Shown: positions 41,999 to 49,401, numbered from the stretch's first letter. The stretch is DNA of 64,000 nucleotides from Gemmatimonadota bacterium (GCA_039588295.1 JBDHAB010000001.1:288001-352000); one strand, 5' to 3'. Notes: generated from the sequence alone by a model not told the origin. A program made the numbers and translations.

Positions 41999-44098
41999 GT
42001 GAAGGTCTATACAGGAGATAAGATCCGAAACGTGGCGGTCGTCGGCCACGGCGCGAGCGGCAAAACCAGTCTAGTAGATGCGCTTGCGTTCGTGGCCGGC
42101 AGCAGTTCGCGACATGGGTCGGTACAGCAGGGAACCGCTCTCACCGATTACACCCCCGACGAAATCGAGCGACAGTACTCCATCAACCTCGCTCTCGCAT
42201 ACGCCGAGTGGAACGGCGTCAAGATCAATCTGATCGACACCCCTGGCTACCTCGACTTCATTGGCGATACGATGGCCGGCGTTTCGGCGTCGGACACGAC
42301 GCTCGTCGTGGTAAGCGCCACCGCCGGGGTCGAGGTGGGGACGGAGAAGGCTTGGGAGTACGCGTCGGAGCGTGGTGTGCCGCGGATGTTCTTCCTGTCC
42401 CTGTTGGACAAGGAGAACGCCAACTTCGAGAAGGTCTATCAGGATATCCGGGAGCATCTGACGCCGAAGGTGGTGCCCATTGAGATCCCGGTCGGGGAGG
42501 GCCCGAGCTTCCACGGGATCATCAATCTGTTTTCGAAGAAGTGCCACATGTACAAGAAGGGCACCAAGACCGGCGAGTACGACGAGGCCGAGATCCCCGA
42601 CGAGTATCAAGAGCGGTTCGCGAGGTACTCACAGGAGCTGATCGAGACGATCGCGACTACCGACGACACCCTGCTCGAGCGGTATCTGGGGGGTGAGGAG
42701 ATCAGCCGCGAAGAGGCGATCACGGCGATGAAGGTAGGCGTGGCTCGAGGTGAGATCTGCCCCCTGCTCTGCGGTTCGGCGCATCTCACCTATGGGACGC
42801 GAGCGCTACTCTCGAAACTGAGCGAGTTGGTGCCGGCACCCACGGAGCGTCCGGCGCCTGTTGCCGAAACTTGGGGCGACCCGACCCCGGTCGAACTCAA
42901 GGGGTCGGACGAAGCGCCCTTCGTCGCGCAGATCTTCAAGACCGTCTCCGAGCCGCACGTCGGTGACGTGACGTTCTTCCGCATCTACTCCGGCAGCGTG
43001 AGAAACGGCGCGGAGGTCTACAACGCACCGCGGTCGTCCGTGGAAAAACTCAACCACTTATCGACCGCCCAGGGGAAGGACCGCACCGAGGTCCCGATGC
43101 TGCATGTCGGCGACATCGGAGCCGTGGCAAAGCTGAAGGACACGCATACCAACGATACACTCTCCACCCAAGCGTGCCCGGTCGTCCTGCCGAAGATACC
43201 GTTCCCCGAGCCGCTCACGGTCCTCTCGGTCGAGGTCAAGCAGCGGGGCGAGGAGGACAAGCTCTCAACCGGGTTACAGAGGCTGCACGAGGAAGATCCC
43301 ACGTTCCATCATGAGTACAATGCCGAACTGCGCCAAACACTCCTCGGGGGCCGCGGTGAGCGGCATCTCGAGATCGTGATCGGTCGGCTGGAACGGAAGT
43401 TCGGTGTCCATGCGGAGCTTGGGCGTCCTCGGGTTGCGTATCGCGAGACGTTCAAGGGGAAGGCAGAGGGCCAAGGACGACACAGGAAGCAGACCGGCGG
43501 TCGCGGGCAGTTTGGAGACTGCTGGATCCGTATCCAGAGCCTGCCTCGTGGGAGTGGATACGAGTTCGTGGATCGGATCAAGGGTGGGGTGATTCCGAGC
43601 AAGTACATCCCAGCCGTGGACAAGGGTATCCGGGAAGCGGCGGCGCGCGGCGTCACCGCCGGATATCCGGTCGTCGATTTCAAGGTGGAGTGCTATGACG
43701 GGTCGTACCACGACGTCGACAGCAGCGAGCAAGCGTTCAAGATGGCCGGCATTCTGGCGTTCCGAAATGTCGCGACGAAAGCCAAGCCGATCCTCTTGGA
43801 GCCGATTCTCGAGGTCGACATCTGGACCCCGGAAGACAACCTTGGTGAGGTGATGGGCGATCTTTCCGCCCATCGCGGTCAGATTTTGGGTAGTGAGCCC
43901 GACGGTCGACTAACCAAGGTGCGGGCGCAGGTGCCGGAGGCGGAGATGTATCGCTACTCGACGCAGCTCCACTCGATGACCCATGGGCGGGGGACCTTCC
44001 GGTGGGCCTTTTCGAGCTATCAGCAGGTGCCACCGGAAATCGCGGAGAAGCTTCGCGAGGAACGAGCGAAAGAGCTCGAAAAGGAGAACGCGCGGTAG
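41999..44098 (+). CDS. fusA: Elongation factor G paralogue (EF-G2 type)
   Basis: GHGASGKT, DTPGY, KQTGGRGQFG, DGSYHDVDSS and LLEPI; divergent G motifs mark a secondary EF-G. Not in an S12/S7 operon. Confidence 0.88.
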   Translation: MKVYTGDKIRNVAVVGHGASGKTSLVDALAFVAGSSSRHGSVQQGTALTDYTPDEIERQYSINLALAYAEWNGVKINLIDTPGYLDFIGDTMAGVSASDTTLVVVSATAGVEVGTEKAWEYASERGVPRMFFLSLLDKENANFEKVYQDIREHLTPKVVPIEIPVGEGPSFHGIINLFSKKCHMYKKGTKTGEYDEAEIPDEYQERFARYSQELIETIATTDDTLLERYLGGEEISREEAITAMKVGVARGEICPLLCGSAHLTYGTRALLSKLSELVPAPTERPAPVAETWGDPTPVELKGSDEAPFVAQIFKTVSEPHVGDVTFFRIYSGSVRNGAEVYNAPRSSVEKLNHLSTAQGKDRTEVPMLHVGDIGAVAKLKDTHTNDTLSTQACPVVLPKIPFPEPLTVLSVEVKQRGEEDKLSTGLQRLHEEDPTFHHEYNAELRQTLLGGRGERHLEIVIGRLERKFGVHAELGRPRVAYRETFKGKAEGQGRHRKQTGGRGQFGDCWIRIQSLPRGSGYEFVDRIKGGVIPSKYIPAVDKGIREAAARGVTAGYPVVDFKVECYDGSYHDVDSSEQAFKMAGILAFRNVATKAKPILLEPILEVDIWTPEDNLGEVMGDLSAHRGQILGSEPDGRLTKVRAQVPEAEMYRYSTQLHSMTHGRGTFRWAFSSYQQVPPEIAEKLREERAKELEKENAR

Positions 44099-44130
44099 CC
44101 GGATGCGGGGCCGGCCGGTCGTCGTCGGCC

Positions 44131-45327
44131 CTAGGTCCGCTTCTTCTTCGTCTTGCGCCCGCCGTTTCGCAAAGAGGGACGAGCGCTCTTCGCACTCACG
44201 GTTCGGCCTTGATCGAACAGCGGGAGCACCGCGTACTCGGGTTCGGCGATTCCCGCTGCCACCATCACCTCCTGCGGCGTCTGTGGGTAGACGAATCGGC
44301 CACCGCGGTAGTTGCGGAGCACGACCTCCGTGTCCGAGATGCTTTCGACGTACTCCGGCAGCAGGGGGATCTTGCCGCCACCGCCCGGTGCATCAATCAC
44401 GAAGTGCGGTACTGCGAGGCCGCTCGTCCATCCGCGTAGCTCGCCCAGGATCTCCAGGCCCTTCTCTACGGTCGCCTTGAAGTGCTCAATCCCGGCGACA
44501 TTGTCGCACATGAAGATGTAGTAGGGGCGAACCCGTGCAACGAGCAGCCCCTGCAAGAGTTCCTTCATCACTGTGGTGTCGTCGTTCACGCCCTTCAGAA
44601 GGACAGTCTGACAACCCAGCGGAATCCCGGCATCGGCGAGCATTCCGAGTCGCTTGACCGCTTCGGGGGTGAGTTCCGCTGGATGATTGAAGTGCGTATT
44701 GATGTAGAGCGGGTGATGTTTCTTCAGCACCTTGCACAGCTCTGGAGTGATCCGTTCCGGCAGGTGGCACGGAATGCGACTTCCAATCCGGATGATGTCC
44801 AGGTGTTTGATTTTCCGCAGTCGCCCGAGGATCAAATCGAGGCGACGATCGGAGAGCAAGAGGGGATCGCCGCCCGACAGGATCACATCACGGATTTCCC
44901 GGTGCTCCTCCAGGTATTGGAACCCACTCTCCAACTGAGCGATAGGGATCTTTTCGGGATCTCCGACCTTGCGCCGGCGTGTGCAGAAGCGGCAGTAGGC
45001 GGCGCAGACGGGGCTCACGAGGAAGAGCGCACGGTCGGGATACCGGTGCGTGATGTTGGGAACCGGGCTGTCACCTTCTTCGTTGAGGCTGTCAAGCACG
45101 CCGTCGACGACCTCTAGCTCTTGGAGGTCGGGAATGTACTGCCTCCAGATCGGGTCGTCGGGTTCCTGGATCAGGTCGACCATGGCCGGGGAAATACGGA
45201 ATTCGAAGGTGTCTGCGGCCTCCTGCAGTCGATCGAGCTCCGGGAAGTGCTCGGCACCGAACTTGTCAACAAGCTGTTGCAGAGTTCGGATGCTGCGCTT
45301 GTGGAGGAGCTTCTGCCAATCAGCCAT
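44131..45327 (-). CDS. kamA: KamA-family radical SAM enzyme (lysine 2,3-aminomutase-like)
   Basis: HRYPDR, CAAYCRFCTRRR, SGGDPL, HFNHP, QTVLLKGVND and DAPGGGGK (PLP Lys). Confidence 0.9.
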   Translation of the reverse strand: MADWQKLLHKRSIRTLQQLVDKFGAEHFPELDRLQEAADTFEFRISPAMVDLIQEPDDPIWRQYIPDLQELEVVDGVLDSLNEEGDSPVPNITHRYPDRALFLVSPVCAAYCRFCTRRRKVGDPEKIPIAQLESGFQYLEEHREIRDVILSGGDPLLLSDRRLDLILGRLRKIKHLDIIRIGSRIPCHLPERITPELCKVLKKHHPLYINTHFNHPAELTPEAVKRLGMLADAGIPLGCQTVLLKGVNDDTTVMKELLQGLLVARVRPYYIFMCDNVAGIEHFKATVEKGLEILGELRGWTSGLAVPHFVIDAPGGGGKIPLLPEYVESISDTEVVLRNYRGGRFVYPQTPQEVMVAAGIAEPEYAVLPLFDQGRTVSAKSARPSLRNGGRKTKKKRT

Positions 45328-45841
45328 AGTGTGCCGTCTCGGTTGCGGGAGGACTGAGATGCTTGGTGTAGACGATCAGATCGTCACCCGGCGCGTAGTA
45401 TCCGGAAATCCGCGCCGCCTGATCGTAGCTGAGTGACTCGTAGAACCGACGGGTTGGCGTGTAGTCGTCACGCGACGATGTCTGAACCACGATGAGTTGC
45501 CCGTTCCGCTCCTGCATGCTCTCTTCCGCAGCGGCCATGAGATGTCGGCCTACGCCCTGCCGGTGCGCGGAAGGATCGACGATAATCCAGTACAGGTCCC
45601 ACGTGGCCGTCGTGCACGGCGTCGGGCCGTACAACGTGAATCCGATTAGTGTCTCATCGTCGAATGCGCAGAGCCCGTGGTAGTCGCCCCCTGGTTGGGC
45701 AACGGCTTCATCGAAGACCTCCAAGGCCACGGTCACCTCGTCAGATCGGAACACACCGGTCGCCTCGACCATCTCGGCAACACGGTCGTGGTCCGACGCA
45801 CGCGGCGGGCCGAGCGTGACCAGGGTGTTCGACATACTCAT
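45320..45841 (-). CDS. GNAT N-acetyltransferase
   Basis: LYWIIV...RQGVGRHL acetyl-CoA motif A and TRRFYESL. ATGA overlap with the upstream gene. Confidence 0.85.
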   Translation of the reverse strand: MSMSNTLVTLGPPRASDHDRVAEMVEATGVFRSDEVTVALEVFDEAVAQPGGDYHGLCAFDDETLIGFTLYGPTPCTTATWDLYWIIVDPSAHRQGVGRHLMAAAEESMQERNGQLIVVQTSSRDDYTPTRRFYESLSYDQAARISGYYAPGDDLIVYTKHLSPPATETAHYG

Positions 45842-46863
45842 GCGACCGAGGAGGGTTCGGGGGTCGCATCCCACTGCCCGGCGGGCGGCCTCGTACCGGG
45901 TGGCAGTGTTCTCGGATAGTCGACCGCCGCCTGCATGACCTGAAGCACCAGATGCTCGTAGGACCAGCCGAACGCCCCGGCCATGCGAGCGAGTCCCGCG
46001 TCGGTCGACAAGTCAGGGTTGGGGTTGACCTCGAGCACCCACGGCTGGCCGTCGGCATCGACCCTGACATCCACGCGGCCGTACCCCCGCCCTTCCACCG
46101 CGCGCCACGCGTGGGTGGCGACGTCGATCACGCGTGCGGCCAGATCACCATCCAGGGCGGCCGGGCACACCGGCTCGGTCCCGACGTACTCCGGACTCTC
46201 ATCGTGCCACTTCGCGGCGAATGACACGATCGGCCAGGCGTCCTCCGGCATACGCGAGAAGTCGATCTCGGAGAGTGGCAGCGTGTACTCGCCCACGAAC
46301 CCCACGGCGATTTCTCGGCCTGCGACGTATTGCTGGACCAGGACCGGCCCGTGGAGTTCCCGGACCTGCCCCACCCGCTGCCGGAGGGCGTCTTCAGTGG
46401 TCACGACCGAACCTTGGTCGATTCCAATACTGGCGTCCTCGGCTGCGGGCTTCACGATGGCGGGCAAGGCGACGGCCAACTTCGACCCATCTCGCGGCAC
46501 GAGCCAGCGAGGGACCGGGAGTCCCGCCGCTTGAAGCACTGCGTTCAACAGCGGCTTTCGATGGCAGACCGTCATCGTCCACGCCGAACACCCCGTGTAC
46601 GGGATTCCGGCAAGTTCGATTGCCGACGCGACCTTGTACTCCAACTGGCTGACACCCTCGATGCCTTCGCACAGGTTGAACACGAGATCGACGTCGCGCA
46701 CGGCGTCGAACCAGGCCAAGTCCGAGCACACCGCAACCCGCGTGACATCGTGGCCCGCCTGCCGCAGGACCTCGTGCACTCCGCGCACGGATTCCAGCAC
46801 CGCCTGAATGTCCTCGGGACTCCAGGTCTCAGCGCCGCCGTCGTACAACACCGCGACCTTCAG
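45838..46863 (-). CDS. D-Ala-D-Ala-ligase-like ATP-grasp enzyme
   Basis: VFNLCEG, IPYTG, IVKPAAEDASIGI, GYGRVDVR and LEVNPNPD. Start may be CTG at 46863 or GTG at 46920. Confidence 0.85.
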   Translation of the reverse strand: MKVAVLYDGGAETWSPEDIQAVLESVRGVHEVLRQAGHDVTRVAVCSDLAWFDAVRDVDLVFNLCEGIEGVSQLEYKVASAIELAGIPYTGCSAWTMTVCHRKPLLNAVLQAAGLPVPRWLVPRDGSKLAVALPAIVKPAAEDASIGIDQGSVVTTEDALRQRVGQVRELHGPVLVQQYVAGREIAVGFVGEYTLPLSEIDFSRMPEDAWPIVSFAAKWHDESPEYVGTEPVCPAALDGDLAARVIDVATHAWRAVEGRGYGRVDVRVDADGQPWVLEVNPNPDLSTDAGLARMAGAFGWSYEHLVLQVMQAAVDYPRTLPPGTRPPAGQWDATPEPSSVA

Positions 46864-47942
46864 GGTGTCGCTCCCGCCGTCGGGCTCGGCATCAGCTCCC
46901 TCCGGGTGATGCGTCGCCACGCGATCCGCGTAGCGGTCTGGATCAGCTCGTCGTAGGTCATGCCGACGGCCGCCGCCGCCCGCGGGAAGCAGCTGTTGGC
47001 CATCGGATCCGGAATGATCCCCGGCAAGGGGTTGATTTCGAGGACGTGCGGCGTGCCGTTCCCGTCCAGCCGGAGATCGACCCGAGCCCAGTCACGGCAG
47101 CCGAGCGCGCCGTACGCCGCGAGCGCCGTGCGCCGAACCGCGGCGGCGGTCGCTTCGGTCACGTTCGCGGGACACTCCAGAATGTCGAGTTCGTTGTCGG
47201 GCACGTCCCACTTCCACTTGGCCTCATAGCCCATGATGGGCAATGCGCCGTCCGGGAGTTCGTCGAACCGATATCGGATAATCGGGAGCGCCGCGGCATC
47301 GTCACCGTTGCCGAGGACTGCCACCGTGAACTCCTCGCCCGGCAAGTAGGCTTCGGCGAGGACTGGCTGTCGATAGGTCGCCAGCAGCTGCCGTGCCCGA
47401 TCGATCGCCTCGTCGGGCGTTCGGACGTAGTTGGCCTCCGCTATTCCTTTAGAGGAGCCTTCCCAAGCCGGCTTGAGGAACACCGGATACGGATGGCCGT
47501 TCCGCAGGGCATGCAGGTCAGCCGGCGTCTCGATCCAGAGAAACGGTGGTGTGGGGACGCCGCGCTGCCGGAACACTTCCTTGGCTCGGACCTTGTGCAG
47601 TGCGATCCCGAGCGTGAGCGGGTCGCTCCCGAGGTAGGGGACTCCGACAAACTCGGCAATGGCGGGAACGTGCCCTTCTCGATTTGGACCAGCCAGGCCT
47701 TCAGCCATGTTGAAGAGGAAGTCGACCTTCGCCTCGCGGAGGCGCGTGGGAAAGTCGTCGACCGCCTCGAGGAGGGTTACCTCGCCAAACAGCTGCAACG
47801 CATTGCGGACGGCGTTGACGGTGTCTCGGTCATCCCACTCGACGTATGCGTCAGTAAGCGGCTCGAAGGTGGTGCGACGTTCGCCGTCGTGGTCCACGAC
47901 GACGTCGTCCGGCCGTTGATTGAAAGCGAGTCCGATGCGCAT
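46860..47942 (-). CDS. D-Ala-D-Ala-ligase-like ATP-grasp enzyme
   Basis: FNMAEG...RE, YLGSD, KPAWEGSSKGI, RDWARVDLR and LEINPLPG. Confidence 0.88.
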   Translation of the reverse strand: MRIGLAFNQRPDDVVVDHDGERRTTFEPLTDAYVEWDDRDTVNAVRNALQLFGEVTLLEAVDDFPTRLREAKVDFLFNMAEGLAGPNREGHVPAIAEFVGVPYLGSDPLTLGIALHKVRAKEVFRQRGVPTPPFLWIETPADLHALRNGHPYPVFLKPAWEGSSKGIAEANYVRTPDEAIDRARQLLATYRQPVLAEAYLPGEEFTVAVLGNGDDAAALPIIRYRFDELPDGALPIMGYEAKWKWDVPDNELDILECPANVTEATAAAVRRTALAAYGALGCRDWARVDLRLDGNGTPHVLEINPLPGIIPDPMANSCFPRAAAAVGMTYDELIQTATRIAWRRITRRELMPSPTAGATP

Positions 47943-47959
47943 TCAACTCCAAGTACTTC

Positions 47960-48003
47960 ATTGTGTTGCGCAACACGATAAGGAATGCTTGGAAGATTCG
48001 CAA
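47960..48003 (-). promoter_or_regulatory. Sigma70 promoter with overlapping palindromic operator for the ATP-grasp/GNAT/KamA operon
   Basis: Minus strand TTGCGA (48003-47998), 17-bp spacer, TATCGT (47980-47975); upstream A-tracts; perfect palindrome GTGTTGCGCAACAC at 47963-47976. Confidence 0.65.
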
Positions 48004-48112
48004 TAGTTTTTTGGCGACTTTTTTTCGAGGCGGCCGCGCCGCGCGGCTCGGGCGTGCCGCGTGAGTGCGTTTGAAAGGTCGAGCGGAAGGCGATGACGGA
48101 GTTCGGGGGAGC

Positions 48113-48610
48113 CTACTCGAGTCGTGCGCGCCTGAGGTAGAGGCGGAAGCTGTACGCAAACCCGTGGCGCTTGTCAGCCGAGTGCCATGCGTCCTCTTCC
48201 AGGTGCCACTCCTCTGTGTCGAACTCGGGAAAGAAGGTGTCTCCGTCCACGACGGCGTGTACGACCGTGAGGTATATCCGGTGGGCACGGTCGAGTGCCG
48301 CGCGGTAGATCTCTTCCCCACCGACCACGAACACCTCCCGATCCCCTTCAGCACGGCCGAGAGCTTCATCGAGGCTGTGGACGATTTCGATGCCGGGCCT
48401 GCGGTACGTCTGGTCACGCGTGAGCACGATGTTCAGCCGTTGGGGGAGCGGCCTCTCCAAGGTCTCGAAGGTGCGGCGACCCATGATCACGGCGTGGCCG
48501 ATCGTGAGCGCCTTGAAGCGGCGCATATCTCTAGGCAGCCGCCACGGGAGCGCACCTTGGCGACCGATCACTCGGTTCTCCGCCATGGCGGCGATCAGCG
48601 AGATGATCAG
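48113..48610 (-). CDS. folA: Dihydrofolate reductase
   Basis: [15 protein letters not shown]...LPW.LP.D, MGRRTFE, RPLP.R, VVGG and GDTFFP. The conserved first strand lies upstream of the track ATG (48586), implying a CTG start at 48610. Confidence 0.93.
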
Positions 48611-49401
48611 ACGGCCACCGGAGCTGCGATCCGTGGATGGGGGTCGTAGCCTTCGAGTGTGAAGTCCCGATAGGCGAAATCGAACAGAGACCCGATCTCG
48701 GGGTTGAGCTTCATTCGGGGGAGGTCGCGCGGCTCTCGGCCCAGCTGGAGGCGCGCCTGCGCGAGGTGGTTGGTGTACAAATGGGCGTCTCCCAAGGTGA
48801 GAACGAACTCACCTGAGTGGAGTCCGCAGACCTGTGCCACCATCAGCGTGAGGAGGGCATAGGACGCAATGTTGAACGGCACGCCGAGGAAGACATCAGC
48901 ACTTCGTTGGTAGAGTTGACATGAGAGCCGGCCGTCCGCGACGTAGAACTGAAACAGCACGTGGCACGGCGGGAGGGCCATCGCCGGTAACTCGGCGACA
49001 TTCCAGGCGCTGACCATGAGCCGCCTCGAATCAGGGTCCGTGCGTATCGACTCGATGACCCGTGCCAGCTGATCCACTCGCTTACCATTCGGCGTGGGCC
49101 ACGACCGCCACTGCGCGCCGTAGATGGGTCCGAGGTCCCCGTTCTGGTCGGCCCACTCGTCCCAGATGGTCACACCGTGGTCACGCAGGTAGCGCACATT
49201 GGTGTCGCCGTGGATGAACCAGAGCAGCTCATGAATGATGGATTTGAGATGGACCTTCTTCGTGGTGACCAGCGGGAACCCGGCCGCCAAGTCGAACCGC
49301 ATCTGATACCCGAAGATGCTGAGGGTACCCGTACCCGTGCGGTCCTGTTTCGGACGGCCATGCTCGAGAAGGTGCTCTAACAGATCGAGATACTGTCTCA
49401 T
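48607..49401 (-). CDS. thyA: Thymidylate synthase
   Basis: [33 protein letters not shown] and C-terminal APVAV. Confidence 0.97.

Follow-up and report, generated by a model that had tools for sequence, protein, structure and literature searches.

A 64,000-nucleotide stretch of DNA from a Gemmatimonadota bacterium (GCA_039588295.1, JBDHAB010000001.1:288001-352000; hereafter the window) contains an operon of four overlapping genes for two ATP-grasp ligases, a GNAT-family acetyltransferase, and a relative of lysine 2,3-aminomutase (KamA), and it raises the question of what these proteins make together. The original prediction was that they make an acetylated beta-lysyl di- or tripeptide (an osmolyte, a signal, or a cell-wall precursor) or that they modify a protein or polymer. 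Based on the analysis presented here, we propose, with a probability of about one half, that the product of the operon is an N-acetylated beta-lysyl amide, small and cytoplasmic. KamA would convert L-lysine to beta-lysine, the two ligases would spend ATP on forming one or two amide bonds between beta-lysine and a further amino acid or amine, and a free amine would be capped by the GNAT protein with acetyl-CoA. The layout first proposed was recovered in the window, where four minus-strand open reading frames (ORFs) occur in the order ligase 1, ligase 2, GNAT, and KamA, with overlaps of 4 nt (CTGA), 4 nt (ATGA), and 8 nt between successive genes.

46860..47942, minus strand: ligase 1, a Ddl-fold ATP-grasp amide ligase of 360 aa (PF07478, E 1.9e-32)
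45838..46863, minus strand: ligase 2, a second Ddl-fold ATP-grasp ligase of ~341 aa (PF07478, E 1.9e-26)
45320..45841, minus strand: GNAT, a small single-domain acetyltransferase of 173 aa, 2R7H family (PF00583, E 4e-13)
44131..45327, minus strand: KamA, called type A, a radical S-adenosylmethionine (SAM)/pyridoxal phosphate (PLP) aminomutase of 398 aa (PF04055/PF12544), predicted lysine 2,3-aminomutase
47943..48112, minus strand: gap of 170 bp between dhfr and ligase 1, A/T-rich near 47960-48025, a possible promoter judging from its sequence

Beta-lysine as the proposed input to the pathway

The KamA protein scores 277 bits against TIGR00238, above the cut-off of 199.2, and aligns to 2a5h with an E value of 5.8e-106, the match ending at 2a5h residue 366 of 416. 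The cysteines of its CxxxCxxC motif (C108, C112, and C115) and its PLP lysine (K319, the equivalent of K337) are present in all 48 rows of the alignment. The same is true of R117, D275, and D312, which the 2a5h alignment equates with Arg134, Asp293, and Asp330 and which we take to be the lysine-binding residues. KamA is predicted to be a lysine 2,3-aminomutase with a lysine-type active site, and this conservation supports the earlier assignment of KamA as the maker of beta-lysine.

The argument that beta-lysine is the required input comes from the way in which the aminomutase varies among genomes. One 301-genome sample of the phylum was searched with the window KamA, with the GNAT profile, and with a divergent 465-aa aminomutase (type B) that is 27% identical to the window KamA; one genome (G155) was excluded from the contingency count and from the tree described below. 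Among the 138 GNAT-positive genomes, 117 carry type A, 18 carry type B, none carries both, and 3 carry neither. In one of these three (G033) type A is interrupted by a contig end, and the other two (G134 and G255) have distant GNATs with no ligases nearby and no ligase-1 orthologue. Each of the 136 module genomes, which make up about 45% of the sampled Gemmatimonadota genomes, carries exactly one aminomutase type (118 type A and 18 type B), with the reservation that a gene may be missed in any single genome whose assembly is incomplete. The mutual exclusion of type A and type B aminomutases among these 136 genomes is new in this analysis.

A ligase-2 tree of 41 rows was prepared from the complete set of 18 type-B genomes together with 23 type-A genomes, which were hand-chosen from the 118 to cover mixed genera. 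The type label requires four changes on this tree, forced by its starred branches, in all bootstrap trees. All four independent pairs run in the same direction (two-sided sign test, p 0.125, not significant). In one genome (G143), type B lies ∼580 bp behind the GNAT gene, in the kamA slot. Type B retains the CxxxCxxC motif and the equivalents of the arginine, the two aspartates, and the PLP lysine, and it is 60% identical to the aminomutase that heads a Streptomyces cluster with capreomycidine synthase, VioC, carbamoyltransferase, and glycosyltransferase genes, which is presumably streptothricin-like. Beta-lysine is a constituent of streptothricin according to PMC10522769.

The repeated replacement of KamA by an aminomutase of a second type is most simply read as a need of the ligases and the GNAT protein for free beta-lysine, whichever of the two enzymes supplies it. 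The proposed beta-lysine input is in this way backed by the repeated change from type A to type B. The swap would narrow the choice of substrate to beta-lysine, and it suggests that beta-lysine can be supplied in trans.

Several other aminomutase genes came to light in these searches. The genome that holds the window (G000) has a second KamA-family gene (C30:15492-16679, plus strand) that is 36% identical and probably has another substrate; it has Arg at the Asp293 equivalent and lacks an Asp330 equivalent, in the manner of a Bradyrhizobium plasmid enzyme encoded beside a gamma-glutamyltransferase, a seven-transmembrane (7TM) protein, and an ATP-grasp gene. No match to PF09043 (lysine 5,6-aminomutase alpha) was found in the genome, but none of 14 control genomes matched either. 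In the type-B loci (L147 and L149-L165, from G170, G225, G296, G120, and others), type B stands with a divergent GntR regulator, a CoA-transferase-like gene, and a class III aminotransferase that scores above the NF004426 cut-off, and this cluster looks like an undescribed beta-lysine catabolic unit. A single ORF that joins GNAT to type B (P0265) may be a frameshift artifact and would indicate adjacency at most. On a plasmid of Streptomyces sp. SAT1 (L201, 4051-17998), a type-B-like aminomutase is grouped with GNAT, ATP-grasp, major facilitator superfamily (MFS), methyltransferase, PGM1-like ligase, SET protein, monooxygenase, and class I tRNA-ligase-family genes.

Two diverged ligases and an acetyltransferase

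Ligases 1 and 2 are 31% identical to each other. Both fall below the family cut-offs for Ddl, with scores of 137 and 124 bits against TIGR01205 (cut-off 245.65) and of 161 and 142 against PRK01372 (cut-off 243), and a true ddl gene that scores above the cut-off lies elsewhere in the genome (C1:200058-201041). All of their best database labels are nevertheless Ddl, and the predicted structures have the Ddl fold: the ligase 1 model (pLDDT 92.9) matches DdlB best (TMq 0.73), and the ligase 2 model (pLDDT 93.7) matches Ddl best (TMq 0.76).

Residues of the two ligases were numbered by alignment to Escherichia coli DdlB and counted in 87 ligase-1 rows and 60 ligase-2 rows; apart from Ser150 and Tyr216, the roles given to the DdlB residues are those we take them to have. 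The equivalents of K97, K144, E187, K215, R255, D257, E270, and N272 are kept in 86-87 of the 87 ligase-1 rows and 59-60 of the 60 ligase-2 rows, and the window ligases share the ATP/Mg and oxyanion-hole residues of Ddl. Since the ATP/Mg set is retained, both ligases look catalytically active. At the E180 position, 29 of the 60 ligase-2 rows, among them that of the window, have Gln. The residues expected to select the substrate are changed. His63 is replaced by Glu in every row of both ligases, and Tyr216 is replaced by Trp in 85 of the 87 ligase-1 rows and in all 60 ligase-2 rows. Only ligase 2 has Asp-Ala in place of Gly149-Ser150 (Ser150 is Ala in 60 of 60 rows), Asp in place of Gly276, and Ala in place of Ser281 (53 of 60 rows); it also has an "EDAS" P-loop and an "NPNPD" motif, and no conserved N-terminal acid. 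Ligase 1 retains the GSS loop, G276, and S281, and it carries an acidic N-terminal motif (D31, E35, D37, and E81) in which D31, E35, and D37 are near-invariant. According to PMC7691350, Ser150 and Tyr216 mark ligases that make only D-Ala-D-Ala. These comparisons bear out the earlier statement that the two proteins differ from each other and from typical Ddl, and they argue that the pair does not simply make D-Ala-D-Ala.

The extra acidic residues of ligase 1 and its retained Ser281 equivalent suggest that it would activate a diamino acid and couple it to an acceptor that bears a carboxylate. Ligase 2 has no conserved N-terminal acid, has lost the Ser281 equivalent, and has gained two aspartates, so it may join an N-blocked or dipeptide donor to an acceptor amine without a carboxylate, for which diamines and lysine side chains are candidates. 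The two proteins, in contrast to the single subunit type of Ddl, would act as a Ddl-like heterodimer. A model of the ligase 1-ligase 2 pair scored 0.60, compared with 0.02 for the best control, with at least 84% of contacts agreeing between runs and a partner pLDDT of at least 85. The mark used was reached by 116 of 157 solved pairs and by 2 of 215 mismatched pairs; among pairs that scored 0.60 or less, only 18 solved pairs reached it, along with both mismatches. Ddl homodimers have already been solved, so the pass may reflect memory or likeness, and the model gives the heterodimer weak support. Natural tandem fusions of the ligases, which occur in both orders (one is in the Haliangiales record P0005), favor pairing independently of the model, and in another locus (L093) ligase 2 is fused to GNAT.

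Similar architectures were found elsewhere. Myxococcus xanthus MXAN_4097 has tandem Ddl-like domains (PMC9108774) and is likened here to the fusions by architecture rather than by orthology; the text of that source available to us reports no GNAT or kamA in its cluster and gives no biochemical function. Many methyltransferase-ligase fusions of ∼640 aa, including ones from Methanolobus and Methanococcoides, and double ATP-grasp fusions of ∼800 aa contain the same noncanonical Ddl-like domain (P0047-P0089). In the genome of the window, two further noncanonical Ddl-like genes (L037 and L039; C15:12522-13406, minus strand, and C2:130997-131893, plus strand) have a ligase-2-type "EDAS" loop and a Lys-Trp omega loop, are unlinked to kamA, and may form another pair or serve as alternative partners.

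The GNAT profile (A5) matches 2r7h_A with an E value of 1.7e-51, the next match being at 6e-08, and 2R7H is its only close solved relative. That structure was deposited as a "putative D-alanine N-acetyltransferase of GNAT family," a name that is the depositors' guess. A search of the ESM Atlas returned only GNAT clusters. The protein carries conserved acidic residues.

The pairing of a lysine 2,3-aminomutase with an acetyltransferase also occurs in AblA/AblB of methanogens and KamA/YodP of Bacillus, which make N-epsilon-acetyl-beta-lysine. The analogy with AblAB, which the original prediction drew, holds at the level of chemistry only. The 173-aa GNAT belongs to the 2R7H family, KamA scores below the AblA cut-off, and two ATP-grasp ligases are added. 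The identification of GNAT as AblB was rejected: TIGR03827 had no match in the 96%-complete genome, in a search whose control scored above the cut-off in 2 of 14 genomes.

A conserved module and its possible products

The full gene order is present in 30 of 31 Gemmatimonadota loci, and the remaining locus ends after ligase 1. Of 595 matches in a metagenome scan, the best 80 were analyzed, and 44 of these loci had at least 3 kb of DNA downstream of ligase 1. The full order was found in 31 of the 44, at roughly 30-75% identity, and in 5 others kamA was in another arrangement. The order is kept across loci of 33-72% GC, and its conservation is not due to chance. The neighborhood analysis called for at the outset thus shows a module that is widely conserved. 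No gene for an exporter, a precursor peptide, a Mur enzyme, or a target was a recurrent neighbor across lineages in the loci examined, in keeping with a small molecule that stays in the cytoplasm. The genes recG (15 loci), thyX, tatC, and queC were considered as parts of the pathway and rejected, as they look like lineage synteny, and rhizobial plasmid clusters of kamA and ATP-grasp genes have different arrangements from the module and were kept as context only.

Outside subscription papers and bioRxiv supplements, no description of a two-ligase, GNAT, and KamA operon or of its product was found in the literature. The idea is not wholly new, since an operon of aminomutase, SET protein, and a Ddl-like ligase (called an "MXAN_4097-like amidoligase" and also "D-Ala-D-Ala ligase 3") in a lichen Nostoc has been suggested to place methylated beta-lysine on an unknown acceptor (Gagunashvili & Andresson 2018, PMC5987646). 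As described in the available text of that paper, both operons combine a noncanonical Ddl-like ATP-grasp ligase, a lysine 2,3-aminomutase, and a lysine-modifying enzyme. The Nostoc operon has one ligase and a SET methyltransferase, whereas that of the window has two divergent, coupled ligases and a GNAT; a multidrug and toxic compound extrusion (MATE) pump and a transglycosylase are present in Nostoc and absent from the window operon, a comparison made by description, not by sequence. We conclude that the four-gene form is a real and conserved module, a variant of a predicted but unproven kind. In M. xanthus, disruption of MXAN_4699, a 456-aa predicted lysine aminomutase, reduces evolved predatory swarming according to the text available (bioRxiv 10.64898/2026.05.15.725110); this unlinked long aminomutase is close to type B in length and is likened to it by length only.

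As to the kind of product, the acetylated beta-lysyl compound originally proposed gains from the aminomutase swap as far as its beta-lysine input is concerned, and the same data do not distinguish an osmolyte, a signal, a cell-wall precursor, or a protein tag. That the product serves as a stress or compatible solute or as a polyamine-like compound is conjecture. Nothing in the present data specifically favors an osmolyte, because the relatives include groundwater isolates and no salt-linked gene recurs among the loci. A broader proposal, whose chances we put somewhat short of even, is that the module represents a widespread and unrecognized beta-lysine metabolite or synthetase-independent protein tag, made by an obligate heterodimer of two diverged Ddl paralogues that are annotated everywhere, wrongly, as cell-wall ligases, and that beta-lysine is needed so strictly that the aminomutase was lost only after a distant one had arrived.

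A number of observations weigh against an N-acetylated beta-lysyl amide made from KamA-derived beta-lysine. The best model for KamA, TIGR03820 (lysine, AblA equivalog), gives a score of 437.6, below its cut-off of 525.4, and the protein lacks the Cys268 position (Asp250; Asp in 39 of 48 rows) and the C-terminal cysteine segment. In 8 of the 44 metagenome loci there is no kamA in the fetched DNA, and in 3 of the 80 loci a pyruvoyl arginine decarboxylase lies upstream (one also has agmatinase), so the amine input may vary. The agreement of the four pairs in the tree does not reach significance, and the 23 type-A rows out of 118 were chosen by hand. Type B is mostly found in its own cluster of GntR, CoA-transferase-like, and class III aminotransferase genes, which is 8-16 kb from the operon in several genomes, and one genome (G094) has type B but not the module, so type A may have been lost as redundant with an enzyme kept for another use of beta-lysine. 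The ligase pocket assignments come from alignments and the roles ascribed to DdlB residues rather than from docked structures, and the E15 region aligns poorly.

If the product is not a free small molecule, the module may write a tRNA-synthetase-independent beta-lysyl (plus acetyl) tag on a protein or polymer, which we consider unlikely. Its resemblance to EpmA/EpmB, which act in the beta-lysylation of elongation factor P (EF-P), is that beta-lysine is made and ligated. EpmA is a lysyl-tRNA synthetase paralogue, and the genome of the window encodes EF-P with no EpmA (genX) match above the cut-off (best 247.6 vs. 286.9, in a 520-aa frame); on the EpmB model the score of KamA is 225, below the cut-off of 369. 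A ligase 2 without the Ser281 equivalent would suit a lysine side chain as acceptor, histone deacetylase (HDAC)-like genes are neighbors in 4 of the 80 loci, and more distant clusters of Ddl-like and KamA genes carry a gamma-glutamyltransferase and a 7TM protein, or CapA. On the other hand, no candidate target gene recurs across lineages, a convergent elongation factor G (EF-G) paralogue is confined to Gemmatimonadota loci and two metagenome loci, and the closest relatives of the ligases are Ddl enzymes, which act on small molecules, rather than peptide taggers of the RimK type.

Slightly less likely again is that the ligases and GNAT form a general diamine-conjugating unit, in which beta-lysine is one interchangeable input to a glutathionylspermidine-like conjugate and agmatine or putrescine, diaminopropionate, or diaminobutyrate is used elsewhere or as a co-substrate. 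The arginine decarboxylase genes upstream of the ligases (L058:6486-10871, where the agmatinase also lies, L075:1599-5385, and L086:7405-9945) would fit such a unit, as would the conserved acidic residues of GNAT and a conjugative Thioflavicoccus plasmid (L041, NC_019941.1, 4557-10038) that groups a diaminobutyrate (DABA) aminotransferase, sbnA, an ornithine-cyclodeaminase-like gene, a Ddl-like ligase, and a convergent kamA. This explanation partly overlaps the one we prefer; the decarboxylase is found in only 3 of the 80 loci, seen as loci rather than as whole genomes, and an aminomutase is present in all 136 module-bearing Gemmatimonadota genomes.

It is improbable that the ligases supply peptidoglycan precursors with an alternative dipeptide or a branch, a role suggested for the Nostoc ligase. 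The genome has its own ddl, mur and fem genes are not recurrent neighbors of the module, neither ligase retains the equivalents of His63 and Tyr216 and ligase 2 also lacks that of Ser150, and an insertion in the tandem-Ddl gene MXAN_4097, comparable by architecture and not by orthology, caused no obvious growth or shape defect as far as the available text of PMC9108774 reports. These points stand against the Ddl fold of both ligases, the depositors' name for 2R7H, and the Nostoc paper, which in its available text favors peptidoglycan modification on account of a nearby lytic transglycosylase (PMC5987646).

The proposal that the ligases simply make D-Ala-D-Ala, or that the aminomutase acts on glutamate or arginine, in a loose grouping of genes can draw on the Ddl labels and on KamA scores of 391 and 319 bits on the glutamate and arginine aminomutase models, but it is very improbable given that both ligases are under every Ddl cut-off shown and have changed substrate residues in a genome with a true ddl, that the lysine model scores highest and both aspartates are in all 48 KamA rows, and that translational coupling and gene fusions link the genes.

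Many proteins now labeled "D-alanine-D-alanine ligase" or "D-alanine N-acetyltransferase" are members of the module and probably have no part in making the cell wall. Should the product prove to be a conserved solute or protein tag in Gemmatimonadota and further poorly cultured phyla, beta-lysine would have a new outlet besides fermentation, EF-P modification, the AblAB pathway, and assembly into antibiotics. Each of the four genes is small, and the set is self-contained and easily expressed, so the product should be directly findable.

The three loci with arginine decarboxylase before two ligases have no kamA in the fetched DNA, and in two of them (L058 and L075) a SAM methyltransferase gene follows the ligases. 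The genes on the Thioflavicoccus plasmid are a candidate diamino-acid peptide cluster.

Gene starts, transcription, and neighboring genes

The ORF caller placed the start of ligase 2 at GTG 46920. In 31 of 31 relatives the ligase-1 stop lies within an NTGA word (16 CTGA, 8 GTGA, 4 ATGA, and 3 TTGA), and in 30 of 31 this junction is the opening of the conserved N-terminus of ligase 2. For this reason the start is likely to be CTG 46863 (46861-46863, minus strand). A CTG start may lower the level of ligase 2, and gene callers mis-start the gene.

The claim that the four genes lie behind one promoter was not confirmed. A scan of positions 43900-48300 found no sigma-70-like and no terminator-like sites, and dhfr-thyA, 170 bp upstream of ligase 1 on the same strand, could be co-transcribed with the operon. 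The annotated neighbors are the EF-G paralogue, dhfr, thyA, squalene/phytoene synthase, and a short-chain dehydrogenase/reductase (SDR); no epmA, efp, mur, or lysine-fermentation gene is among them, in agreement with the first description of the locus.

The EF-G paralogue (window positions 41999-44098, plus strand) is 38% identical to the other EF-G of the genome. It is convergent with kamA, the two stop codons lying only 32 bp apart; no terminator was found there, and the paralogue is kept in most Gemmatimonadota loci. The thyA-dhfr pair upstream of the operon occupies window positions 48113-49401 on the minus strand, and several relatives carry thyX there, which amounts to a local swap of thymidylate synthase type.

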